51,722 nucleotides of DNA, taken from the IMG/VR virus record IMGVR_UViG_3300029728_000017; one strand, written 5' to 3'. The DNA is from a virus. Position numbers and translations under genes: made by a program. Positions 2,820 to 44,529 of this stretch are shown here, one piece after another (within the stretch, counting starts at the first letter, position 1; every line of letters starts with the position of its first letter). The notes below the pieces were generated by a model, which saw only the letters and a program-made list of their open reading frames with translations, had not been told where the DNA came from and did no database searches.

Positions 2820-3108
2820 CTATAAGTACGATTTCCCGAACTCGCGCCGGAAATCATCTTCCGTCCAGCCATGCTCCTGCATGGCCTTTAGCTGTCCGTA
2901 TCGCCGCAGCCTGCGCATTTGTTCGCCGCTGCGGTGTACTGCCGTCTTTCCGTTCCTGTGGCACCTGTTGCCGCATAGATAGACCACAAGGCCGTATTTT
3001 TCGCTTTTCTTGCGATATGCTGCACCAAATATGTGGCTAATGGTGCCGTTCTAATGGATCGCTTGCGTCACATCTTCCGCAAAGAAAACATTTCCTGTTA
3101 TTTGGCAC
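2820..3108 (-). pseudogene. Small Cys/His-rich (HNH/NinG-like) gene split by an apparent +1 frameshift
   Basis: Manual read. From the GTG at 3106-3108: (M)PNNRKCFLCGRCDASDPLERHH, then TAG at 3037-3039. The next frame continues SHIFGAAYRKKSEKYGLVVYLCGNRCHRNGKTAVH...FGKSYL to a stop at 2820-2822. Skipping one base at 3039 joins the two pieces. Confidence 0.5.
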
Positions 3109-3637
3109 CGTTTATCACCTCATTTCTGAACCGAATCGCATCAGATAGGTTCTTAAAATCTCTGCTTGTTTTCGCCCACTTGATATTCACGCGATATCCT
3201 TTTTTGTAGCGAATTATGTATTTCTCCCCGGTTGATGACGGTCTATAGCGGCCTTTTTGGTGACGCATAAGATGCCTCGATCGACCGACATTTTCTTTTT
3301 GCGTAACCCACTCCAAGTTATTTACCACATTATTGCTCCTGTTGTGATCGCGGTGATCGACAACCAAGTTTTCCCCTTCCGGTTTATCAAGAAACACTTC
3401 CGCTACAAGGCGATGAACATAATAATTAGTCCTTACTCCATTATCGCGGAGTGACACATAGGCGTACCCGTTTCCGTTGTTTCCTGGCGCCAAAACGTGT
3501 CCTTTATCCGTTCGCGGCGAAGTCCCACCGTGGCAATTATTTACAATCCGCGTTCTCGTTAGTGAGCGCAACCGTCCCATATTGCTTATTTCGTAAGCCC
3601 CTTCATAACCAGGAACGGGTTTCCAAATTTCACCCAT
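3098..3637 (-). CDS. HNH homing endonuclease (NUMOD4-like N-terminus plus HNH_3-type core)
   Basis: ORF track, 179 aa, with WKPVPGYEGAYEISNMGRLRS and VDHRDHNRSNNVVNNLEWVTQKEN. It is visibly AT-richer than its flanks and overlaps both neighbouring genes. Confidence 0.9.
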   Translation of the reverse strand: MGEIWKPVPGYEGAYEISNMGRLRSLTRTRIVNNCHGGTSPRTDKGHVLAPGNNGNGYAYVSLRDNGVRTNYYVHRLVAEVFLDKPEGENLVVDHRDHNRSNNVVNNLEWVTQKENVGRSRHLMRHQKGRYRPSSTGEKYIIRYKKGYRVNIKWAKTSRDFKNLSDAIRFRNEVINGAK

Positions 3638-4193
3638 TCACCAGCACCTCCGTTCCGTCAGGTACATACTCTGGGCAGTAATGGATGGCGAAAGATGTGA
3701 CCTCGCCCGCATTCCCCTGATATTTCGTGGTGGGGGTCGCGTCCCAGCCCTTCACAGGCTCCGGGTACTTCTGCGACCAACTGCACCCTCCGGCGTAGTT
3801 CCGGCACGTCCAACATGGTTGTGGATGGCCGGGGCGGCGGTCTGCCTTTCTCCTCGCCTTACAGCCGCAGCTGTATGCGCCTCTCAGATTCCGCGCCAGT
3901 ACCACCCGCGTCTTGCCGCAGTCGCACACGCAGAGCCATTTCGGCCCATCCGGCCCCGATCCGAGGCAGTGGTCGACCACCAGCATCCCGTGCCGCTCTC
4001 CTGTGTGGTCAGTGCGGCGCGAACCTGTTGTGCCGCCCCGGTGCAGTTGCTTTCCCGGTGTGAAGGTCGCTTCCGGCGTCCACCCCCTGTCCAGCCGGTT
4101 CCGCAGCGTCTTTTGCGGCAGATTTAGTTCCTTCGCCCATTGCCGCATGGTCAGGGACTTTCCGTGGGCGGTATAGATTTTTGCTGTGCTCAT
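3630..4193 (-). CDS. HTH plus Cys-rich DNA-binding protein, function unknown
   Basis: Met 80 of ORF 3630..4430 has an ATGA overlap with the upstream stop. LTMRQWAKELNLPQKTLRNRLDRGW is HTH-like, and several CxC/CxxC pairs follow. Confidence 0.7.
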   Translation of the reverse strand: MSTAKIYTAHGKSLTMRQWAKELNLPQKTLRNRLDRGWTPEATFTPGKQLHRGGTTGSRRTDHTGERHGMLVVDHCLGSGPDGPKWLCVCDCGKTRVVLARNLRGAYSCGCKARRKADRRPGHPQPCWTCRNYAGGCSWSQKYPEPVKGWDATPTTKYQGNAGEVTSFAIHYCPEYVPDGTEVLVNG

Positions 4194-10109: not shown

Positions 10110-10325
10110 TTATTTCTCTTTCCGTCCCTCCGCCGTACACCGCATGGCGTCCTCAATTTCCGCCACCGTCACGCCGTAAAGCCTTGCCAGCGTCTTGTGG
10201 TACTTCCTTGCGATGCCGTTCACGCGGTTCTCCCAGTTCGACACGGCAGCGACAGTCACATTGCACTTCTTCGCAACGTAGCTCTGGCTCAAGCCCGCGT
10301 TTTCTCGCAGCGCCTTTAATTCCAA
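10110..10325 (-). CDS. Cro-like XRE-family HTH regulator
   Basis: ORF track, 71 aa, with a TTG start 8 nt after AAAGGAGGG. LSQSYVAKKCNVTVAAVSNWENR is an HTH motif. The gene faces the lysogeny genes divergently. Confidence 0.85.
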   Translation of the reverse strand: MELKALRENAGLSQSYVAKKCNVTVAAVSNWENRVNGIARKYHKTLARLYGVTVAEIEDAMRCTAEGRKEK

Positions 10326-10361
10326 GCTCTCAGCCCTCCTTTCAGTGTTCAGAACTTTATC

Positions 10362-10390
10362 TTGACAAACGCTATACCAACCGTTATTAT
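10362..10390 (+). promoter_or_regulatory. Near-consensus promoter for the plus-strand (lysogeny-side) genes
   Basis: TTGACA (10362-10367), a 17-bp spacer, then TATTAT (10385-10390), within the divergent cro/repressor gap. Confidence 0.55.
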
Positions 10391-10495
10391 GTAAGTGTCA
10401 GCCAACAAAATATCGGCTATAAGCCCGCAAAACGGAGGTTTCCGATGGGGGTTTGGTTTTTTGTTGTCTGCTTCAAGTTCTGTAAGGCTATTATA

Positions 10496-10542
10496 AACGA
10501 AATTTTTTCGTTAGTCAAGATTATTGGCGAATTTTTTTCGTT
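10496..10542. promoter_or_regulatory. Two similar inverted-repeat operator-like sites
   Basis: AACGAAAtttTTTCGTT (10496-10512) and GCGAAtttttTTCGTT (10527-10542), about 30 bp apart in the switch region. Confidence 0.4.
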
Positions 10543-10598
10543 GATAAATTGCATAAAAAAAGATGCTAATTTTGGACATCTTGTAGAAAGGGTATACT

Positions 10599-11396
10599 GT
10601 GGGATTGTTTAGTAAGTTTCTGGGAAAGCCGGAAAAGCTTCAAAATAATGCAATATCTCCTGTTGAAAAACAGGGCTCGCTGCGTTTTGACTATTTACAA
10701 ACCAATGAGCCTGTCGAGAAAATAGCATTGTTGTTAAAAGGCAGATGCATAAAAGAAAATCTTTCAAAACAAGATTGGCTGAAAGCAAGCAGCGCAATTG
10801 AATACGAAATGGGGAATTACGTATTTATGCCTTTTCAGGTTTGCAACTGTTCTTATATTGGAGAAGGAAAAGCCTGGACAAGTTATAATCTAAACAACAA
10901 AAGGGCTTTAAGCTTGGCAATAAATGAAATAAATTATCATTTGAGCACATTACGCGAACTTGAACCGGAGCAAGATGCCATACCTAAAATTGTTCCTTTG
11001 GACTACAATATAAAATTCGGAACAATTTGTTTTGATTATTCTTCCGTTGTGCGAGCCGGAGATTTTCCAAGAAGCTATATTGTGTATGCGCCAAAAACAA
11101 AAACTGGAAAGCGATCTCAATACCCTCTTATCGCATTTTTTAATACGATCAAAAATAGTGAAAATAATAATGGCGGTGAAAACTACTGTGGAGAACTGTA
11201 TTACTCCATAAATGGTGACCTGTCAAAAGCAACCGTTCATTGCTGGAAACACAGGAAATTTACAGAGTTTAATTTTTCCGTTGTCGGCCGAACTTTTTTA
11301 ATTTCATCAATTAAAACGGTAGACGAAAACGGTCGAATGTTCTCTGTATACGATTGCAATTGGAAATTTACAGATTACGCCGACTTTTCAGATTAA
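10599..11396 (+). CDS. Hypothetical 265-aa protein (AT-rich lysogeny-side cargo)
   Basis: ORF track, GTG start. It is visibly AT-rich compared with the rest of the phage. No motif recognised. Confidence 0.75.
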   Translation: MGLFSKFLGKPEKLQNNAISPVEKQGSLRFDYLQTNEPVEKIALLLKGRCIKENLSKQDWLKASSAIEYEMGNYVFMPFQVCNCSYIGEGKAWTSYNLNNKRALSLAINEINYHLSTLRELEPEQDAIPKIVPLDYNIKFGTICFDYSSVVRAGDFPRSYIVYAPKTKTGKRSQYPLIAFFNTIKNSENNNGGENYCGELYYSINGDLSKATVHCWKHRKFTEFNFSVVGRTFLISSIKTVDENGRMFSVYDCNWKFTDYADFSD

Positions 11397-11412
11397 ATTT
11401 GAGGTAATTGTT

Positions 11413-11880
11413 GTGCCAAAAAGAGATACCGTCTTTATAAATTATGAAAAAACTGTTCAGCTGATAAAAGAAAAATATAGAAATAATACTATTTTTTGCG
11501 AAGCCATCAACAAAGCGATGGGAACAGAGCGTACAACAAAGTGGGTAAGTGAGTGGAAAAGAAACAGTAATCTTCCTTCCCCGGAAGAAGCGGTTTACAT
11601 TTGCGTCTTGCTCCAAACCACCCCAGAAGAAATCCTTCTCCACGAGGGCGAAACCGAAGAGGAAACCGCCAAGTGCCAGAAGGACATTGCCCTTGTCCGT
11701 GACCTGCTTGATCAGCAGGGCGCAAAAAAAGCGCCCACTGAAACCAGTGAGCGCGAATTTGTACCATCTTATGAAGATTGGGAAAAGCAGGCTGAAAACT
11801 GGACGATAGACCAGCTGGATAACGCCATCTGGAAGCTGTTCCAGATCAAGAGGAAAAGAGAAGGTAAACATGGCGATTGA
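11413..11880 (+). CDS. CI-like HTH repressor candidate with no recognisable S24 peptidase domain
   Basis: ORF track, 155 aa. The HTH-like segment is FCEAINKAMGTERTTKWVSEWKRNSNLPSPEEAVYICVLLQTTPEEILL. Its position is opposite the cro-like gene. Confidence 0.55.
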   Translation: MPKRDTVFINYEKTVQLIKEKYRNNTIFCEAINKAMGTERTTKWVSEWKRNSNLPSPEEAVYICVLLQTTPEEILLHEGETEEETAKCQKDIALVRDLLDQQGAKKAPTETSEREFVPSYEDWEKQAENWTIDQLDNAIWKLFQIKRKREGKHGD

Positions 11881-12154
11881 ATTGACCAAAAGCGCAAAGA
11901 AATCTCTGGCGACACTCTACCGCGAGTATTGCCAGAGATTAAACGCGGGTGAAAAGAAAGCGCAGGCTGCGTCTTTCCAGTCTTACAGTGAATTTGTGAT
12001 GGACAATCGGAAAGAGCTGAAAGACGCGGGATTTATTCGAGTTGACCTTTTGGGTAATATTTATTTGACGGACAAGGCCATTATTTACATGGAAAATAAG
12101 ACGGCAGACGCCATCAAAGAATGGCTGTCATTCGGCACACAATTTATACCCTAA
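11870..12154 (+). CDS. Hypothetical protein
   Basis: ORF track, 94 aa. The start overlaps the repressor-candidate stop. Confidence 0.7.
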   Translation: MAIELTKSAKKSLATLYREYCQRLNAGEKKAQAASFQSYSEFVMDNRKELKDAGFIRVDLLGNIYLTDKAIIYMENKTADAIKEWLSFGTQFIP

Positions 12155-12352
12155 ATTGTTTTCGATGAAATCAAGGAACTGCTTCCCGGTAAACAGGTTC
12201 CCGGCGTGGGCTTTTTCAATGCTGAAAGATACGTCGCATCCATCAGCGTAAAATTTGAATTCTTCGCAGCGGATCGGCAGGCCGTTTACAATGACATACG
12301 TCTTGTCCCCGTCAGACGCGATCAGAATTTTCGGGTTTGATAGTTCCATCAT
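12128..12352 (-). CDS. Hypothetical protein (ATG at 12352 preferred over the TTG at 12358)
   Basis: ORF track 12128..12358. GGAG lies 7 nt upstream of the ATG at 12350-12352. It is convergent with 11870..12154. Confidence 0.65.
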   Translation of the reverse strand: MMELSNPKILIASDGDKTYVIVNGLPIRCEEFKFYADGCDVSFSIEKAHAGNLFTGKQFLDFIENNLGYKLCAE

Positions 12353-12485
12353 TTTCAAGCTCCTTCCATAATTTGTTTTGCTCTTCCTTTGTCAACGTTG
12401 CTACAGCAGAAAGAAATTTCTCCCGCAGCGCCATGATCATTGTACCACAGTTTTCGTTTTGTCTCAAGTGTACCTGTTCCGTCAT
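12312..12485 (-). CDS. Possible 57-aa protein (below the ORF-track length cut-off)
   Basis: Manual read gives GGAGGAAAGGAAGC-ATG then MTEQVHLRQNENCGTMIMALREKFLSAVATLTKEEQNKLWKELENDGTIKPENSDRV. The stop TGA is at 12312-12314. Confidence 0.45.
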   Translation of the reverse strand: MTEQVHLRQNENCGTMIMALREKFLSAVATLTKEEQNKLWKELENDGTIKPENSDRV

Positions 12486-12542
12486 GCTTCCTTTCCTCCA
12501 TCCAAATTTCTGCGTTAGAACAAGCGTTTCATTTGTGTGCTT

Positions 12543-12571
12543 ATTGTAACATAACCTTAACTGTTTTGCAA
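12543..12571 (-). promoter_or_regulatory. Minus-strand promoter for the 12485 and 12352 genes
   Basis: On the minus strand: TTGCAA (12566-12571), a 17-bp spacer, then TACAAT (12543-12548). Confidence 0.5.
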
Positions 12572-12581
12572 CCGCTAGATG

Positions 12582-12590
12582 TGGTATAAT
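12582..12590 (+). promoter_or_regulatory. Extended -10 promoter element on the plus strand, back to back with the minus promoter
   Basis: TGgTATAAT at 12582-12590. No good -35 is present at a 17-bp spacing. Confidence 0.4.
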
Positions 12591-12660
12591 TTTTGTGAAA
12601 GATCACTATCGTCAAGGGAGGCGTTCCGCCCATGTCCCATCGTTATAACTGGCCTGTGTA

Positions 12661-12700
12661 AGCCCTCCGCCGTCTCCGCAACAACGGCGGAGGGCTTTTC
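12661..12700 (+). terminator. Strong hairpin in the leader of the HTH-membrane/integrase operon (terminator or attenuator)
   Basis: A 13-bp perfect stem AGCCCTCCGCCGT-ctccgcaaca-ACGGCGGAGGGCT is followed by TTTTCC. It is preceded by an SD plus a 9-codon ORF (MSHRYNWPV). Confidence 0.5.
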
Positions 12701-12846
12701 CCGACGGGCACCCACCATGCCCGCCGTGCAAAAACAGGGTAGCAACAACAACTTGGGTAGGTCAATGCCGAAGATGGGTATTTGACAAAACTAGACATGC
12801 CGACATTCGGGCATCTCCTACCCAACAATGGGGAGAGGAGCAGAAA

Positions 12847-13398
12847 ATGAGCAAGTCTTTACAGGATATATGCAGAGAGGCCAGAGACCGACAGGGTATG
12901 ACCAATCAGGACGTTGCAGACAATTCCAACGTGCCGCTTTCCAGTGTGCAAAACTTTTTTGCATCTACATCTAAAACGCCAACTGTAAATAACTCCGGCA
13001 ACATATGCCGGGCCTGTGGTGTTTCGCTGGACAAGTATTTTAGCATCACGCCGGATGTTCTGCCGGAAGAGCAAATAGAACAAATGGAACGCGATCACAA
13101 AGCGGAGCTGGTAATGGCAAATCTGGAAGGACGGATAGAACAGCTTTCCAAGACCGAGAAGCGTATGCGAATATCGCTTTACAGTATCTCCGTCCTTGCT
13201 GTGGTTTTGCTAATGACGTTAATCGGCTATGTGGCGTTTGACTATCAGTTGCCCAACGTCGGTCTTATTCAGGGCAGACAGGCCAGCACTTTGGCGTGGA
13301 TCGTCATCATCCTGCTGGCTGTCGGCGCTGGTGTGATCGTATCTGCGTTTTTGAGCGCCCTGCGATACGGTAAATTTATTGCACCGAAGGAAAAATAG
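12847..13398 (+). CDS. Membrane-anchored XRE-type HTH regulator
   Basis: ORF track, 183 aa. The N-terminal HTH is GMTNQDVADNSNVPLSSVQNFF. A coiled segment follows, then two hydrophobic helices (ISLYSISVLAVVLLMTLIGYVAF and LAWIVIILLAVGAGVIVSAFL). Confidence 0.75.
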   Translation: MSKSLQDICREARDRQGMTNQDVADNSNVPLSSVQNFFASTSKTPTVNNSGNICRACGVSLDKYFSITPDVLPEEQIEQMERDHKAELVMANLEGRIEQLSKTEKRMRISLYSISVLAVVLLMTLIGYVAFDYQLPNVGLIQGRQASTLAWIVIILLAVGAGVIVSAFLSALRYGKFIAPKEK

Positions 13399-13400
13399 AC

Positions 13401-14492
13401 ATGGAATGTAAGAGCTGCAAAAAAGAAATACCGGACGGCGCGGTGTTTTGCCCCTGGTGCGGAAAGAAACAGGCCACAGCGCCCCGCAAGGCGTTGAAGC
13501 GTCCCAACGGAGCCGGGACTGTTTATAAGCTCTCAGGCCGCCGTACAAGGCCGTGGGTGGCCGCGAAAAACAAGGTCATCGTCGGATACTACGAGAAGAA
13601 AACGGACGCTCTGGCGGCCTTGGAAAAGCTTTCCGGCAAGGACTTGGATGAGCGGTACAACATGACGTTCGCGGAAGTCTTTACAGAGTGGAAAGCGGAG
13701 CATTACCGCGAGATTGGCGAAAAGGGCATTGAGACTTACGAACGTGCTTATGTGATTTTTCAACCGCTGCACGATAAGAAATTCCGCAGTCTGCGCACCG
13801 CCGATTTTCAAGCTGTGATCGACCAGCACATGAGCAAAAGCCACTCCACAGTCAACAAGTACAAGCAGCTCATTACCCAGATGTCCACATGGGCCGTGCG
13901 GGAGGAGATTTGCACCACCAACTTTGCCCGGTTTGTGAAGCTTCCGGAAAACGTCAAAAAAGAAAAGGACGTGTTCACTTCCGCCGAAATCAAAAAGCTG
14001 GAAAAGGACGGCAGCGATACCGCCAAGATCATCCTCATGCTCCTTGCCACCGGTATGCGTATTGGCGAACTGTTCAACTTACCACTGAAAGATTATCACG
14101 GTGACTATGTGATCGGCGGCGAAAAGACGGAAGCGGGCAAAAACCGCATTATCCCCATCCGGCCAGAAGGCCAAGAGTATTTTGCATACTTTGCAAAAAA
14201 AGCAAACGGCAGTTTACTAATTTCAGGCTATGATGGGCAAAAAGTCCCCGCCAATTTCCGCAGGCGGGAATATTACCCCTTGCTGGAAAAGCTCAAGATA
14301 GAGAAAAAGACCCCCCATGCCACGCGGCACACTTACGCCACCCGCGCAGTCAAGGAAGGTCTTGCCCCTGAATATCTGCAAAAAATTCTTGGCCATGCCA
14401 ATTATGCCACCACCGCCGACGTTTACACCCACATTGACGCCGAAACGCTGGTTGGTGCGGTTACTAGCGCGTTACTAGCAAAGCAAAAATAG
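13401..14492 (+). CDS. int: Tyrosine integrase with an N-terminal zinc ribbon
   Basis: ORF track, 363 aa. Contains CKSCKKEIPDGAVFCPWCG. The catalytic region reads HATRHTYATRAV...LGHANYATTADVYTH. Confidence 0.93.
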   Translation: MECKSCKKEIPDGAVFCPWCGKKQATAPRKALKRPNGAGTVYKLSGRRTRPWVAAKNKVIVGYYEKKTDALAALEKLSGKDLDERYNMTFAEVFTEWKAEHYREIGEKGIETYERAYVIFQPLHDKKFRSLRTADFQAVIDQHMSKSHSTVNKYKQLITQMSTWAVREEICTTNFARFVKLPENVKKEKDVFTSAEIKKLEKDGSDTAKIILMLLATGMRIGELFNLPLKDYHGDYVIGGEKTEAGKNRIIPIRPEGQEYFAYFAKKANGSLLISGYDGQKVPANFRRREYYPLLEKLKIEKKTPHATRHTYATRAVKEGLAPEYLQKILGHANYATTADVYTHIDAETLVGAVTSALLAKQK

Positions 14493-35351: not shown

Positions 35352-35942
35352 TCACTCCTTCGTAGTTGTCTGCGCATACTGCGCGTTGAATTGTTTTGCG
35401 TACATTGCGCCCAGACCCTCCGCTTTAGGAGCGCCGCCGGTACCGACGGGCTTTGCAAACGTGGGGGCGGGCTTGCCGGTCTGAAACGCGCTGGGGTCTG
35501 CGTCCATCTGCGCCTTGTGCCACTCGTCAAATCCCTCAAACACGCCGTTTTCCAGTTTCAGGCCCCTTGTTTTCAGGTCTGCGACATAGGCACGTTCCGC
35601 CGCCTTGGAGCTGAATTTGATGCCCTTGTCGTTGATGACCTTGGCAATCGCGTCGGAATAGTCCCGGTCAGCGATCTGGGCCTTGTACTCGGCGGTTTCC
35701 TTGGTGTACTTGCCTTGCAGCTCCTCCAGCTGCTTGCGGATGCCCTCCGCGTCGCCGCTGGATTTCTTTAGCTCCTCGATGTCCTTGTCGCGGTCGGCAA
35801 GATTCTTCTGCGCCGCCGCCAAGTCCTCCTTGGCCTGATCCGCTTTCTGCTTCTCCCGGCCAATGTCCCGGCTGTTTTCGTCGAGGATCTTGTCCACAAC
35901 GTCCTTTTCCAGCCCCAGACCTTCCAAAAAATCGCGTTTCAT
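35352..35942 (-). CDS. Scaffolding protein (GP20-like)
   Basis: ORF track, 196 aa. It is a charged coiled coil lying directly upstream of the decoration and capsid genes. Confidence 0.8.
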   Translation of the reverse strand: MKRDFLEGLGLEKDVVDKILDENSRDIGREKQKADQAKEDLAAAQKNLADRDKDIEELKKSSGDAEGIRKQLEELQGKYTKETAEYKAQIADRDYSDAIAKVINDKGIKFSSKAAERAYVADLKTRGLKLENGVFEGFDEWHKAQMDADPSAFQTGKPAPTFAKPVGTGGAPKAEGLGAMYAKQFNAQYAQTTTKE

Positions 35943-36032: not shown

Positions 36033-36084
36033 AAAAAAAGAAAGAGGGGCTAACCAACTACAATTCGTAGTCAGTTAGCCCCTC
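36033..36084 (-). terminator. Strong intrinsic terminator closing the accessory island
   Basis: The minus strand reads GAGGGGCTAAC-tgactacgaattgtagttg-GTTAGCCCCTC, followed by TTTCTTTTTTT. Confidence 0.8.
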
Positions 36085-36168
36085 TCGGCTCTTCTCACTC
36101 ACCGCTTAGAGCGAGGTCGAATATTTGTTTGATTTATTATACCATACCACGCGACCGGTGGCAAGCGC

Positions 36169-36402: not shown

Positions 36403-37214
36403 TACGACACGCGCCCCCGATCCATCATCGCCACGATGCCGCGCTTCTCAAGAATGTTGTGGATCATCAGGCGTCCCTTCTGCGTCCACTGTGTATGGAG
36501 CTTCGTGTCGGCGCGTCCGTCCGAATGTGTGAACCGGAAAGTCTTGCTCTTGGTATAGCCCTTGTTCATGTGCTTCTTGTAAAGCAGCCATTGGCCGTTT
36601 ACCTTGTGCTGAACGCCCTCGTCACGAAGGATCTTATTCAGCTGCTGGGCGCTCATACCGTAATCGGCGGCGATCTGCGAGGTCGCCAGCGCATCCGGAC
36701 TTTCCAGAATGATATCCACATACTGCCGAATCGGTTCAAACTCTGCGATCACCTGTGCCTGACGCTCATTCTCCGCCGCCAGTGTCGCATTGGAAGCTTC
36801 CAGCGCCATGCGCTGTTCCTCGCTGTCAGCCAGCGCACGCAGCGCGGAGGGATAATCCTTCGGCAGCAGATACATACCGTTCTTGCGGATCGTGGGCAGA
36901 ACTTCTCCCGTGACCCAATCTGTAAACTTCTCCGCCGCAGGCAACTTTGAGCTAAACACAAGGCGATAAAGGTCACTCTCCGGAATAAACAACATTTCCG
37001 TCTCTTGCTCCGTTGTGACCCCATACTGATTTGTGGTAGTAGAGACCCCGCCCCGTTTCAGGGCACCCTTGCAGTGAGCCGCAATCGCGTTTCTTGGCTT
37101 TGCGTAACCGAGCGCTCTTGCTACATCACTTGCGCAGAACAGTACCGCGCCGTTCTCCTCTAAAGTTCTGACCCGCCCAAATTCAGGATTATCAAAAATC
37201 ATCAGTTCGTTCAT
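36402..37214 (-). CDS. Antirepressor (Bro-N domain plus KilAC/ANT C-terminal domain)
   Basis: ORF track, 270 aa. The Bro-N part is LMIFDNPEFGRVRTLEENGAVLFCASDVARALGY and the KilAC-like part is ATSQIAADYGMSAQQLNKILRDEGVQ. Confidence 0.88.
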   Translation of the reverse strand: MNELMIFDNPEFGRVRTLEENGAVLFCASDVARALGYAKPRNAIAAHCKGALKRGGVSTTTNQYGVTTEQETEMLFIPESDLYRLVFSSKLPAAEKFTDWVTGEVLPTIRKNGMYLLPKDYPSALRALADSEEQRMALEASNATLAAENERQAQVIAEFEPIRQYVDIILESPDALATSQIAADYGMSAQQLNKILRDEGVQHKVNGQWLLYKKHMNKGYTKSKTFRFTHSDGRADTKLHTQWTQKGRLMIHNILEKRGIVAMMDRGRVS

Positions 37215-37453
37215 GCAATATCCTCCTTCTTCATCGGTTTCATTTTTACCGTGATGTAAAAATCATCCTCGCCCATTGCAGAAATGTCCTCTACAAGGAA
37301 ATCGCCGAAATATCCCATCATGATCTCGTCGATGCCGTTCTTGTCCCGATACTTTATGGTGTATTGGCACCCGTCCATCGATAGCAGAATCTCCTTCGGT
37401 GTGTAGAGCAACGTGCAGGCTTCTCTAACAGTAAGCATAATAAAAAACCTCAT
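37211..37453 (-). CDS. Hypothetical protein
   Basis: ORF track, 80 aa, with an ATGA-type overlap with the antirepressor gene. Confidence 0.65.
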   Translation of the reverse strand: MRFFIMLTVREACTLLYTPKEILLSMDGCQYTIKYRDKNGIDEIMMGYFGDFLVEDISAMGEDDFYITVKMKPMKKEDIA

Positions 37454-37458
37454 TTCTC

Positions 37459-37488
37459 TTGACTCTGAGGCTTCCCCGATGATAGAAT
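37459..37488 (+). promoter_or_regulatory. Plus-strand promoter inside the minus-strand intercistronic gap
   Basis: TTGACT (37459-37464), an 18-bp spacer, then TAGAAT (37483-37488). It begins 6 nt from the start codon at 37453. Confidence 0.45.
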
Positions 37489-37494
37489 GGATTT

Positions 37495-37566
37495 ACCAAT
37501 GGGGAAACCTGTGGTGATTTGAACGCTCACGTTGTCTTGGTCGGACGGTGGGCGTTCTTTTTATTT
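37495..37566 (+). ncRNA. Candidate Sar-like antisense small RNA of about 70 nt
   Basis: A 10-bp stem GAACGCTCAC...GTGGGCGTTC (37521-37557) contains one T-G pair that is valid only on the plus strand, followed by TTTTTATTT. It lies between the Arc-like gene and the antirepressor operon. Confidence 0.35.
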
Positions 37567-37734
37567 GCCGATTTCTTCTTCAAGCTTTTTTCTAAACCAC
37601 TCTGTTCGTCCCTCGCCCTTTTCGGCCAGTTTCTTGTCGAGTGCTTCAGCTTTTTCCTTGTCCACCATAAACACAAGTTGTTTCATGGACTTTCTGCGCT
37701 CTCTAAAATACTCGGCGCGGCTTTTTTCAGCCAC
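37561..37734 (-). CDS. Arc/CopG-like ribbon-helix-helix protein
   Basis: ORF 37561..37761. An internal GTG at 37734, 5 nt after AAAGGAGGTG, is preferred. KQLVFMVDKEKAEALDKKLAEKGEGRTEWFRKKLEEEI has a strand-helix-helix layout. Confidence 0.55.
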   Translation of the reverse strand: MAEKSRAEYFRERRKSMKQLVFMVDKEKAEALDKKLAEKGEGRTEWFRKKLEEEIGK

Positions 37735-37765
37735 TTCCTCACCTCCTTTGTAGCTAACCACAAAG

Positions 37766-37933
37766 TCAAGAGTTTTTTTCGATTTTCTTCAAATTCACAT
37801 TCTCTCGCCGGATATGTATCACCCGCACCCCGTCTTTGGTGGGGATCAGCTCTACCCGGTCGCCCTTCTTCAAAACGCCATCAATGGCGTGCAAGGTGTT
37901 GGTATCAAAAAGAGAAGTCGCGTTATCTGTCAT
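37766..37933 (-). CDS. Possible 55-aa protein (below the ORF-track cut-off)
   Basis: Manual read gives MTDNATSLFDTNTLHAIDGVLKKGDRVELIPTKDGVRVIHIRRENVNLKKIEKNS. It fills the gap between two genes. Confidence 0.5.
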   Translation of the reverse strand: MTDNATSLFDTNTLHAIDGVLKKGDRVELIPTKDGVRVIHIRRENVNLKKIEKNS

Positions 37934-38456: not shown

Positions 38457-40004
38457 TTATTTCCCCTCCAAATAATCGCGGTACTTCTTGCGAAGTTTTT
38501 CCGGTACAACGGTCACGATTTCGTTCTTCGTGTTGAGCATAACATATCCGTTGTCTGCAAGAAATTTAAGGGTTTGCCGGTCTGTCTGGTACAACGTCAG
38601 TCTGCTGTTGTTGATTATATCCTGTGCAGCCTCAAGGTTCAAGCTGCTTCTGTCCGGCCTGTTCTCAAGATTGTCCCAAAAGTGCTGTTTTGCACCGGAA
38701 ATCTGTGGTTTCCCAACGTCAATCACATATTGACGATCAGAAAACCTATCTTTGATCTTCCATGTACCGGCGTATTCTTTCAACGGCGCGAACTTCTTGG
38801 AATCCGTCAGCTGCCCGCCATACAGCACCTTTAACCTTTCCTTCTGCTCCGGCAGCCCCGCCGCCTTGCTGAACTCCTTGTATTTGGCGTTCAGGCGACG
38901 CAACTTGATGTTGGCGGCGGTCTCATCATCTTTCAGCCCTGCGGCCTTATAAGCGTCTCTGAGACGCCTCTGCTTGCGTATTTGGCGCTCTATGCTGCGC
39001 TGCATCTGTGTAGCTGTGTACCCGTCGTATTCCTTGCCATCAAACACAAACTTGCGGTTTTCGCCTTTCATGGCGTCAAGATCGGCCTGTGAATATGTCG
39101 GCTCACTGACACCCTCCACGAACGGGTAAAAGGTGTGTCGGCAGTTCCAGCCGCCCAGTCCAGCGCCCTGGCCGTAGCCCGTGGTGGCAACAAAATCCTT
39201 GTACTCGCCCTTTGAATCTCCGGGCTTCTCAGCCCAACGATACACGCCGCCTTGCCAACTCTCATGGTTTTCCAGCCCGTTTCCCGTGTTTCGCGCCCCA
39301 ATATGGGCGCTTACTTCCACAAGATCAGTCTCCAGATAGTCGGCGGATTGCTCCGCATACTTCTGGTTGAGGGCATTCACGCCGGTCATCACGGCACGTC
39401 TTGCCGCCACGTCTACCTGATCCCGATGCCCACTTTCGTAGTCCACCGTTTTCAGGCCACTGTCCGCCAGCTGCTTGACCGCGTTGGATATCGCCTGATT
39501 GTAGGAAATCGCGCCGCTCTGCACCTGCATAAGGGCCGAATCGCAACACCATTGGTATGCTTTTGCAGGCGGCAGCATCGTTCGCCCATTGTCCACCAAA
39601 AAGCCCATGCTTCTGGTGATGTTCCGGCACTCCTGCTTTGTCTGTGCATAGATTGCCGCGATAGCCGCCGCATCCACCAGCACATCAGGCCGCGTCACAT
39701 CCGCTAACGTGATAAGCTCGGTGTAATACGCTTGATTCCGCACCACCACATCGTCCAGCAGCTTCTTGAGCTTCTGCTCACTGATGCCCGCGGTCTTGCG
39801 TATGGCTTTCTCGATCTCTTTCAGGTCAATGCCATGCGCCCGCAGCGCCTTGATGTCCTGCACCGTGACCTCATTCAACTCGTCCGCAGCCTTGAGCCGG
39901 GAGCATATCTCCATCAGCAAGGTATCTTCCAGCCCACGATACAACTCAGCCAGTTCCTCCGGCAGAGCGTCCAGCAATTCGGGCGTAAAGTCGTACTTTC
40001 TCAT
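38457..40004 (-). CDS. Minor head protein (SPP1 gp7 / Mu F-like)
   Basis: ORF track, 515 aa. Contains GGWNCRHTFYPF and lies directly after the portal gene. Confidence 0.85.
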   Translation of the reverse strand: MRKYDFTPELLDALPEELAELYRGLEDTLLMEICSRLKAADELNEVTVQDIKALRAHGIDLKEIEKAIRKTAGISEQKLKKLLDDVVVRNQAYYTELITLADVTRPDVLVDAAAIAAIYAQTKQECRNITRSMGFLVDNGRTMLPPAKAYQWCCDSALMQVQSGAISYNQAISNAVKQLADSGLKTVDYESGHRDQVDVAARRAVMTGVNALNQKYAEQSADYLETDLVEVSAHIGARNTGNGLENHESWQGGVYRWAEKPGDSKGEYKDFVATTGYGQGAGLGGWNCRHTFYPFVEGVSEPTYSQADLDAMKGENRKFVFDGKEYDGYTATQMQRSIERQIRKQRRLRDAYKAAGLKDDETAANIKLRRLNAKYKEFSKAAGLPEQKERLKVLYGGQLTDSKKFAPLKEYAGTWKIKDRFSDRQYVIDVGKPQISGAKQHFWDNLENRPDRSSLNLEAAQDIINNSRLTLYQTDRQTLKFLADNGYVMLNTKNEIVTVVPEKLRKKYRDYLEGK

Positions 40005-43820: not shown

Positions 43821-44445
43821 GCTGTTCTCCTCTTTGTTCGGCTTCCCGCTTAGATTGTCACGCGCTCATGCCCGCTTAAGGCCCCGCAAGCATCTCAAGC
43901 GCCACCGTTCGGTCATGGCAAGGAGGACGCATCCTCACGCGCAGTTTTCAGCGAGCATTGTCATTTCCACGTCGGGCATGCCGATACGCTCCGACATTGT
44001 CCGGGCGCTACCCGGCCTCTGGTGCGGCATTGCAGTCCTGCCCTGCTTTAGCGCTTCAAGGGAAAAGCCCCCGCCACTCGCTGTGGTCTCCCCTTACTGG
44101 GCACCTATGCCGCGTATTGGGCGTTTTCTTTCGGCTTCCGCCTATCCGCCTTGAGGAATACGCACAACCCTTCGGAACTCCACGGTAAACGCATGGCGGA
44201 GCGCCTACCGCTTCAATGTTCTGGCACACTTTCGGGCGGGACGCTATGCCACTTGCCTGCGGTAGTGCCGCACCGCTTTTTTCGTCGCGGATTCCGTCTC
44301 TACAGGCTCCGTATTGCCCAGCCGTTTTCTATGTGTCGGCACACTGTGACCGGATGGGAGGCGCGACCTCCCGCCCCTGATCGTGGGGTATCTCACGAAG
44401 TCCGGCGTATACCCGTCATATACCGCTGGCGGGAAAGCGGTTGAA
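43821..44445 (-). ncRNA. Candidate large structured ncRNA (ROOL/GOLLD-like class). The strand is not settled.
   Basis: About 625 nt with no credible ORF, GC-rich, with many short perfect helices. It is directly adjacent to a tRNA-like gene. See the findings. Confidence 0.4.
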
Positions 44446-44529
44446 TGGAGGCATTGGCGGGAATCGAACCCTGCATCGTCCATCGGCGGCAATTTCCGCC
44501 GTGCGCTCTTCCAACTGAGCTACAATGCC
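44446..44529 (-). tRNA. tRNA-like element of 84 nt with encoded CCA and a non-canonical anticodon arm. No anticodon can be assigned.
   Basis: It reads GGCATTG-TA-GCTC-AGTTGGAA-GAGC-G-[CACGGCGG-AAATTG-CCGCCGaTG]-GACGAT-GCaGGG-TTCGATT-CCCGC-CAATGCC-T-CCA. The acceptor stem and D arm are perfect, but the anticodon arm is an 8-bp stem closing a 6-nt loop. Confidence 0.6.

Follow-up and report, generated by a model that had tools for sequence, protein, structure and literature searches.

A conserved antisense RNA gene predicted between a small RHH-like repressor gene and an antirepressor gene in phages of gut Clostridia

Introduction

The virus record IMGVR_UViG_3300029728_000017 of IMG/VR, a stretch of 51,722 nt that is referred to here in its whole length as the window, carries on its minus strand a small operon in which the gene for a 57-aa ribbon-helix-helix (RHH)-like protein is followed, after an intercistronic gap of 107 nt, by an 80-aa open reading frame (ORF) and by the gene for an antirepressor-type protein with Bro-N and KilAC domains. 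Comparison of this gap with its counterparts in other phages and in bacterial genomes indicates that it very probably holds a real gene for a short antisense RNA, read from the plus strand. This RNA is likely to down-regulate the genes that follow it, which we call the cargo. The best explanation that we can offer for the whole arrangement, and one that we hold with moderate confidence, is that a countertranscript switch and an RHH-like autorepressor together guard an antirepressor operon.

A circuit of this type is known from Salmonella phage P22, whose immI region encodes the RHH repressor Arc and the antirepressor Ant, and in which a short antisense RNA, Sar, transcribed across the arc–ant gap, represses ant. 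A first-pass annotation of the window had proposed that an analogous circuit exists here, with an RNA of about 70 nt lying antisense to the intercistronic mRNA. When the window sequence was checked, all of the features listed in that annotation were present in their places.

Results

Comparative evidence for an antisense RNA gene in the intercistronic gap

Searching viral contigs with the 57-aa protein yielded 25 loci, and scanning genomes with an alignment of the protein yielded 31 further loci in Oscillospiraceae and other Clostridia, in genera that include Faecousia, Muriventricola, Butyricicoccus, Colidextribacter, Oscillibacter and Flavonifractor. The loci collected for comparison are labeled L002, L004 and so on. 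Downstream of the RHH homologues, whose protein identity falls as low as 38%, 38 distinct intergenic regions share one common layout, even though their sequences are mostly unalignable. In the order of the mRNA, the stop codon and a run of A residues are followed by hairpin 1, a short CACCA-like spacer, hairpin 2 (the loop of which is the complement of TGnTAnAAT), the complement of TTGAnn, a Shine–Dalgarno (SD) sequence and the start codon of a variable gene. The layout is absent in five RHH homologues (L033, L044, L048, L049 and L054), and the covariance model described below found no match in these five loci either.

The promoter-like sequence on the antisense strand of the window (Table 1) agrees with the consensus at 10 of 12 positions and is extended by a TG motif. 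Seven promoter-like sites were observed in 5.5 kb, where 3.4 ± 1.8 were expected, and the match is therefore not significant in the window alone; its significance comes from the comparison across copies. A σ70-type promoter was found at a fixed distance upstream of 40 of the 41 hits of the covariance model, which come from viral contigs and from genomes of Oscillospiraceae and other Clostridia. It is TG-extended in 34 copies and has a 17-bp spacer in 35, and the count includes seven copies that had not been picked by the promoter pattern. Thus the −35 element, TG motif and −10 element have been conserved, at a constant distance, in surroundings that are otherwise completely diverged. The 6–7 nt that separate the −10 element from the predicted RNA start (37489–37494 in the window) read (A/G)GATTT in most copies, and the same stretch forms the hairpin 2 loop, AAAUC(U/C), in the mRNA.

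The RNA predicted to arise from this promoter would consist of a 5′ stem-loop (37495–37515), a linker, a terminator hairpin (37521–37557) and a U-tail. The terminator has a 10-bp stem in which GAACGCTCAC (37521–37530) pairs with GTGGGCGTTC (37548–37557), one of the pairs being T·G, and is followed by TTTTTATTT (37558–37566), a T-run that overlaps the stop codon of the RHH-like gene. Predicted RNAs of 72–75 nt fold at −27 to −28 kcal/mol (z = −3.7). At each of the 27 non-redundant loci, an RNA of 62–88 nt is predicted whose shape is that of a classical countertranscript, with a 7–8-bp stem-loop starting at +1, a linker of 3–5 nt, a terminator hairpin and a U-tail. The terminator, which is hairpin 1 of the mRNA order, is stabler on the antisense strand in 36 of the 38 loci (mean, −20.2 versus −13.5 kcal/mol; Wilcoxon p = 2e-7), and its G·U pairs would become C·A mismatches in the mRNA.

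We built a covariance model from 32 of the RNAs, with the structure supplied by hand and the sequences then realigned; RNAalifold had predicted no structure from the MAFFT alignment of the same 32 sequences because they were misaligned. The model identified a single copy in the window, at 37496–37570 on the plus strand (55 bits, E = 2e-9), and recovered further copies outside its training set. In the model-based alignment, compensatory changes affected each of the 18 pairs that make up the two RNA hairpins. The covariation score was 0.60, compared with 0.26 ± 0.02 for shuffled data (none of 500 reached the observed value) and at most 0.23 when partners were slid, and one terminator pair is U·G in 23 sequences. 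Raw MAFFT alignments gave the same covariation picture.

Rfam contained no match to 37459–37566 at its gathering thresholds, and when E values up to 10 were allowed the best match was ctRNA_pT181, at chance level (18.7 bits against a gathering threshold of 56; E = 9.4). A small peptide encoded in the RNA was considered and rejected, the sole ORF being MGKPVVI, with seven codons, no SD sequence and no conservation. In summary, the conserved promoter, the covarying hairpins and the strand-biased terminator, all of them read from sequence comparison, support the existence of the predicted antisense RNA of about 70 nt in the gap.

Mutually exclusive structures predicted in the sense leader

In the sense orientation the gap is predicted to form hairpin 2 (Table 1). 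The 5′ arm of this hairpin lies within the stretch that the RNA would cover, the loop is complementary to the −10 element of the RNA promoter, and the 3′ arm corresponds to the promoter spacer. With the first ~17 nt of the RNA, this spacer forms an inverted repeat. The two arms covary, since native pairs of arms average −20 kcal/mol and chimeric pairs −10 kcal/mol, and in most loci the native arm pairs better than any of 26 foreign arms.

These data bear on the possibility that there is no regulatory RNA at all, in which case the hairpin and T-run would only keep stray plus-strand transcription out of the RHH gene, the promoter would have arisen by chance and hairpin 2 would be an inverted repeat at the DNA level. 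The chance-level promoter match of the window, taken alone, and the lack of a strand bias in hairpin 2 both fit this possibility. Against it, the −35, TG and −10 elements are fixed in 40 of 41 copies amid diverged surroundings, and the 5′ stem-loop, which covaries, starts precisely at the predicted +1. In addition, the arms of hairpin 2 differ wholly between the window and L008, whose RHH proteins are 95% identical, which argues against hairpin 2 as a binding site for the RHH-like protein. We regard the absence of a regulatory RNA as very improbable.

Each leader was folded with the RNA-complementary part either blocked or free. An alternative structure, hairpin 3, was predicted only when the RNA occupied the 5′ arm of hairpin 2; in the window it joins GGAAGCCUCA to UGAGGUUUUU at −12.2 kcal/mol (constrained folding). 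Blocking lowered the mean accessibility of the SD sequence from 0.42 to 0.18, and the value for the window dropped from 0.40 to 0.01. With the native 3′ arm accessibility was 0.16, against 0.42 with shuffled arms (p = 3e-5), and at 13 of the 22 non-redundant loci the shuffled arms that sequestered the SD sequence as well as the native arm did amounted to 5% or less. A T-run of at least 4 follows the SD sequence in 13 of the 22 loci, some of its residues being taken up by the stem. The leader would therefore contain a chain of alternative pairings, in which 1:2 is the mirror of the 5′ hairpin of the RNA, 2:3 is hairpin 2, and 3:4 joins the 3′ arm to the SD sequence and the U-run.

We propose the following mechanism. 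A constitutive promoter would produce a countertranscript of about 70 nt that is fully complementary to the intercistronic mRNA between the RHH-like gene and the cargo. By default, hairpin 2 would be folded in the leader and the SD sequence would be usable. The RNA would then bind the upstream arm of hairpin 2 and leave the downstream arm uncovered, because the latter is the spacer of the RNA's own promoter, and the freed downstream arm would pair with the SD sequence. The new hairpin may end transcription as well, given that roughly half of the loci have a U-run behind the SD sequence. With the SD sequence sequestered, the 80-aa ORF, Ant and a final 77-aa ORF would be silenced, and the promoter-proximal RHH-like protein would still be made. 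That an anti-SD or terminator switch of this kind is the mechanism is a tentative proposal, and we put its chances a little short of even.

The same gene order as in P22 (small repressor, antisense RNA, Ant) could instead point to a Sar-type action, in which the RNA would pair directly with the ribosome-binding site (RBS) of the cargo and block ribosomes. The RNA begins with a segment nearly identical in sequence to the 3′ arm of hairpin 2, which can pair with the SD sequence, so that an imperfect contact with the SD sequence in trans is conceivable. However, the RNA has no complementarity to the RBS in cis because its promoter separates the two: the RNA-complementary stretch stops 43 nt upstream of the SD sequence (37452–37448), and the −35 element (37459–37464) lies between the latter and the RNA start at ~37495. 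In many relatives, the −35 element even overlaps the SD sequence itself. Direct blocking of the RBS by the RNA thus appears quite improbable.

A further explanation dispenses with a switch. RNase III would cut the duplex of RNA and mRNA and so separate the RHH message, which would be stable, from the unstable message of the cargo, and/or the convergent promoters would interfere with each other. It is favored by the duplex itself, which is predicted to be perfect over 72 bp (−143 kcal/mol), and by the two promoters, which face each other about 300 bp apart; cleavage of such duplexes is common for cis-antisense RNAs in Firmicutes. This explanation does not account for the covariation of the promoter spacer with the early transcribed region, nor for the better pairing of the native 3′ arm with the SD sequence when compared to shuffled arms, and as a substitute for the switch we consider it rather unlikely. 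Both RNase III cleavage and promoter interference are plausibly compatible with the proposed switch, as parallel or alternative modes of action.

The upstream RHH-like protein and the operon promoter

The 57-aa protein belongs to a family that we call SRAEYFR (phrog_3896, E = 3e-16), which comprises more than 240 clusters at 90% identity and 107 at 50%. An invariant SRAEYFR..R motif is followed by a strand/helix/helix-like pattern (KQLVFMV / DKEKAEALDKKLAEKG / RTEWFRKKLEEEI). Sub-threshold matches to RHH_1 were obtained with 7 of 17 members (best E = 0.0024) and to RepB-RCR_reg (PF10723) with 5 of 24 divergent members (best E = 3e-4). The kinship with Arc that the first-pass annotation had suggested did not hold up: hhalign gave a probability of 0.2% for the family profile against Arc, and the comparison with CopG was not significant, the Arc and CopG sequences having been entered by hand. 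A tblastn search of phages and of 72,556 plasmids with the window protein returned no relative. With its RHH family matches all below threshold, the protein is called only RHH-like here.

In the relatives, the operon promoter reads TTGACw, a 12-bp pseudo-palindrome GTnGnTAnCnAC, TATAAT, a second GTnGnTAnCnAC and then the SD sequence, and in all of them the two pseudo-palindromes flank the −10 element with their centers 21 bp apart. By inspection, the core of the operator-like site changes together with residues of the putative β-strand. Because the paired pseudo-palindromes flank the −10 element of the gene's own promoter, we infer that the gene is autoregulated and that its product is a small self-regulating repressor. 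It would repress the operon promoter through the two 12-bp pseudo-palindromic operators, and the outcome of both controls would be a two-layer lock on the antirepressor.

What is left of this promoter in the window is a remnant (Table 1). A clean 21-bp deletion between two 13-bp direct repeats (37735–37775, minus strand) has removed the −10 element (TATAAT) and one operator-like site. The operator sequence occurs exactly once in the window, and the arrangement TTGACT-operator-TATAAT-operator is intact in the 98%-identical relatives L002, L004 and L006 (at about 2950–3000). Since the −10 element is lost, the operon would be readable only by read-through from the upstream late genes, which would leave the RNA as the main brake in this phage.

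Cargo genes and tandem cassettes

An Ant-like ORF, with Bro-N and/or KilAC, is located within 1.4 kb downstream in 24 of the 38 loci. Other loci have cargo encoding Rha, Rha + KilAC, ORF6N or DUF3102 proteins, and the remaining ones have small ORFs without a known family or a second repressor cassette. A homologous module is found in the tail gene cluster of the Clostridioides difficile myophage CDMH1 (L057, NC_024144.1, 12152–13399; also in phiCDKH02), where gp19 (annotated as hypothetical) is followed by a 117-nt gap and the Bro-N protein gp20. This module was reached by tblastn only with a divergent family member. It has the same promoter, operator and antisense layout, and the covariance model matches it weakly, in the expected place (20 bits, E = 0.11).

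At four loci the cassette appears to control only a small ORF of 67–79 aa (L036, 375–608; L042, 2692–2904; L050, 3287–3490; L030, 4037–4276). These ORFs form one family without known identity (e.g. ...LRDGICALWVMSLAV...), and in L036, L042 and L050 the ORFs that follow resemble host housekeeping genes by eye (pyruvate phosphate dikinase-like, SpoIVA-like).

Cargo ORFs of this size beside host genes, and a sub-threshold match to a VapB antitoxin in NCBIfam (E = 0.0017, 18.9 bits against a cut-off of 60), raise the question of whether the module could be a toxin–antitoxin or defense system, with the RHH protein as the antitoxin to a downstream toxin or with the small RNA as a type I/III antitoxin. 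Nevertheless, the single PADLOC match is at chance level, in most loci the cargo is a Bro-N, KilAC, Rha or ORF6N DNA-binding protein, the cargo proteins are not short hydrophobic peptides, and a 107-nt gap with its own promoter is unlike type II operons. A type II toxin–antitoxin or defense system was rejected on the PADLOC and NCBIfam evidence, and we consider a toxin–antitoxin or defense function in general extremely improbable.

In L030 (3001–4280) and L037 (2170–3250), and also in L014, L031 and L032, the unit of promoter, small repressor gene and antisense RNA is repeated two or three times before one cargo gene. The extra cassettes encode a different, classical CopG-type RHH protein (e.g. 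MSPRTGRPPKE...RTEVIEKGIDLV). Behind the stop codon of the CopG-type gene lie the same RNA element and promoter, and the RNA module is therefore common to at least two repressor families. Where one cassette precedes another, the SD sequence is followed by a mini-ORF of 4–25 codons, such as MAGR* or MPLRIL* (L014, about 3290–3320; L030, about 3290–3305 and 3655–3670; L031, about 2550–2630).

Organization of the locus and of the lysogeny region in the window

The coordinates of the module and of the lysogeny genes are compiled in Table 1.

Table 1. Features of the antisense RNA module and of the lysogeny region in the window.
Feature	Position	Strand	Details
RHH-like ORF, 57 aa	37734..37561	−	GTG start at 37734, seven bases 3′ of SD AAAGGAGG (37749–37742)
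Operon promoter remnant	37750..37769	−	−35 TTGACT (37769–37764) and a single 12-bp pseudo-palindromic operator GTGGTTAGCTAC
Antisense RNA promoter (predicted)	37459..37488	+	TTGACT (37459–37464), 18-bp spacer, TGaTAGAAT (37480–37488)
Predicted countertranscript, ~72 nt	37495..37566	+	Based on folds, covariance model, covariation and strand bias of terminator
Hairpin 2 in sense mRNA (predicted)	37468..37510	−	−20.9 kcal/mol; assignment to the mRNA rests on geometry
Hairpin 3, alternative (predicted)	37442..37476	−	3′ arm of hairpin 2, GGAAGCCUCA, pairs with SD UGAGG and the following U-run
First cargo ORF	37453..37211	−	80 aa from ATG 37453; likelier 75 aa from ATG 37438
Antirepressor-type protein (Bro-N + KilAC (ANT)), 270 aa	37214..36402	−	Pfam E = 3e-23 and 8e-31
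Final operon ORF, 77 aa	36402..36169	−	No known family (Pfam, PHROGs)
Strong intrinsic terminator, operon end	36042..36118	−	Overlaps Rfam gut-2 RNA match
Cro-like helix-turn-helix (HTH) protein	10110..10325	−	Divergent
Three ORFs	10599–12154	+	No family match
HTH_3 protein with predicted membrane helices	12847..13398	+	Adjoins integrase
Tyrosine integrase	13401..14492	+	N-terminal zinc ribbon

The first cargo ORF is kept in close relatives and has no match to a known family in Pfam or PHROGs; its likelier start codon sits 9 nt after the UGAGG SD sequence. The Bro-N/KilAC protein corresponds to phrog_130, 'anti-repressor Ant' (E = 3e-79). The module is flanked by the gene for minor capsid protein 2 (38457..40004) and by the scaffold gene (35352..35942), and the upstream neighbors of the RHH-like gene, a 55-aa ORF and a YjcQ-family ORF, are on the same strand. 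In GenBank phages, blastn of the region found short matches to Ant and gut-2 only. The gut-2 match (36071–36118, minus strand; 47 bits, E = 9e-7) lies just upstream of the scaffold gene, and the gut-2/terminator stretch is 80% identical to a sequence of Flavonifractor phage Chenonceau. An Rfam match to drum RNA (44116–44221, minus strand; 82 bits, E = 6e-14) and a tRNA gene (44449–44529, minus strand) are both located between the early region and the packaging region.

In the lysogeny region, the ORF at 11413..11880 had been named as a CI-like repressor candidate and had served, for want of a recognizable autocleavage domain, as an argument for antirepressor-driven induction. The CI-like assignment was not confirmed, as the ORF had no family match in Pfam, PHROGs or PADLOC, and in NCBIfam it had a chance-level match to a histidine kinase alone (E = 7e-4). 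The HTH_3 protein encoded beside the integrase is better supported as an HTH regulator than this candidate. The ORFs scanned in the lysogeny region (10110–14492) yielded no S24 peptidase domain.

Discussion

We rate the module described here as a real, previously undescribed form of a known type of circuit, in which the antisense RNA probably keeps the antirepressor silent, as in P22 and in some plasmids. Several observations weigh against the explanation by a countertranscript switch and an RHH-like autorepressor. The −10 element is the sole basis on which the RNA start was placed at ~37495. No strand bias was seen in hairpin 2, whose sense-strand form is the stabler one in 21 of 38 loci, and its wobble pairs are therefore no proof that it acts in the mRNA; an early impression that these pairs were valid on the sense strand only was dropped on the same count. 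Accessibility of the SD sequence in the free state is merely moderate (0.42), and in an AT-rich subgroup (L040, L041, L053 and L056) the SD sequence is no better sequestered than with shuffled arms. As for the upstream protein, Pfam gave no above-threshold RHH or Arc match for its family, AlphaFold2 modeled the monomer with low confidence (pLDDT 66) as three helices without a β-strand, and profile searches of the PDB gave no meaningful match, the best chain (E = 0.049) being unrelated. About a third of the loci have a cargo other than an antirepressor, and the antirepressor activity of Bro-N/KilAC proteins in these hosts is taken from annotation.

The analogy to P22 immI that the first-pass annotation had drawn holds for the architecture, for the location in a late-gene cluster and for the probable role, and fails for Arc homology, for the overlap with the RBS and for the Mnt-like repressor. 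In both phages, a small repressor gene and then an antirepressor gene lie on one transcript, and a short cis-antisense RNA with its own promoter comes from the intercistronic region, which for the window is a prediction from sequence. In both, the module sits inside the late-gene cluster (the P22 ant module is a 'moron' inside the late operon; PMC2629481), and its inferred role is to keep Ant off. Unlike in P22, the repressor-like protein of the window has no sequence relationship to Arc, and its RNA matches no Rfam or other RNA family. The predicted start of the RNA falls 43 nt short of the SD sequence, and there is no divergent second repressor of the Mnt type, the upstream ORFs being co-directional. 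The hosts are Gram-positive Clostridia, an extra small ORF stands between the RNA and Ant, and the cassettes can stack in tandem.

Two groups of plasmids offer closer mechanistic parallels. In the rolling-circle plasmid pMV158, the RHH-type protein CopG, of about 50 aa, autoregulates the single operon promoter and acts jointly with the countertranscript RNAII (PMC5717011). Like the copG-RNAII-repB region, the module has a putative autorepressor gene upstream and a predicted countertranscript from the gap between repressor and cargo. Some divergent SRAEYFR members give weak, sub-threshold matches to RepB-RCR_reg and RHH_1. The cargo, by contrast, is an antirepressor or another phage gene and not a Rep initiator. 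In pT181, pIP501 and pAMβ1, the antisense RNA targets the leader upstream of the RBS, and alternative pairings attenuate transcription. Folding suggests that in our module, too, the leader is targeted upstream of the RBS and has mutually exclusive pairings, and that RNA binding would favor a 3:4 hairpin just before the start codon. It differs from the pT181 type in that the 3:4 hairpin has a convincing U-run behind it at only about 13 of 22 loci, which means that termination would not be general, and in that the element belongs to phages and does not control replication.

The c4 RNA of P1/P7 and the CA RNA of N15 block synthesis of the icd-ant antirepressor in the lysogen and act upstream of the ant RBS; they are processed from the sense transcript, have repeated target sites and work through Rho-dependent polarity. 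The RNA of the window would resemble them as an antisense-type RNA that acts upstream of ant and not on the ant RBS, and would differ from them as a separately promoted, fully complementary countertranscript. The two-layer lock would be functionally analogous to P22 immI, and its mechanism would come closest to CopG/RNAII of plasmids and to the countertranscript attenuation of pT181 and pIP501.

Control of antirepressors by antisense RNA is textbook knowledge for P22, P1 and N15 in enterobacteria, and a search of the literature found no equivalent module described for Gram-positive phages. It is possible, at somewhat less than an even chance, that the module represents a new modular cassette of phages of gut Clostridia, in which spacer DNA doubles as the anti-SD/terminator arm of a three-way switch. 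Such a cassette would be portable between at least two unrelated repressor families (SRAEYFR and classical CopG-type), stackable two or three times before one cargo, and able to gate antirepressors and other small phage genes, thereby contributing to lysogeny control in abundant human-gut prophages, including CDMH1. It would tie phage immunity modules to the copy-control cassettes of plasmids in logic and perhaps in origin. The compact design, in which a promoter spacer is also the anti-SD arm, could serve synthetic biology, where the pT181 attenuator has already been reused. The element is widespread, as its partner family forms 107 clusters at 50% identity and occurs in phages of Oscillospiraceae, Lachnospiraceae-like hosts and Clostridioides, and cultured carriers exist in C. 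difficile phage CDMH1, Muriventricola aceti H5_61 (locus L030, NZ_JAOQKF010000003.1) and Colidextribacter sp. OB.20 (locus L034, NZ_QWKG01000034.1). The module thus offers a testable handle on how gut prophages may lock and release their antirepressors.

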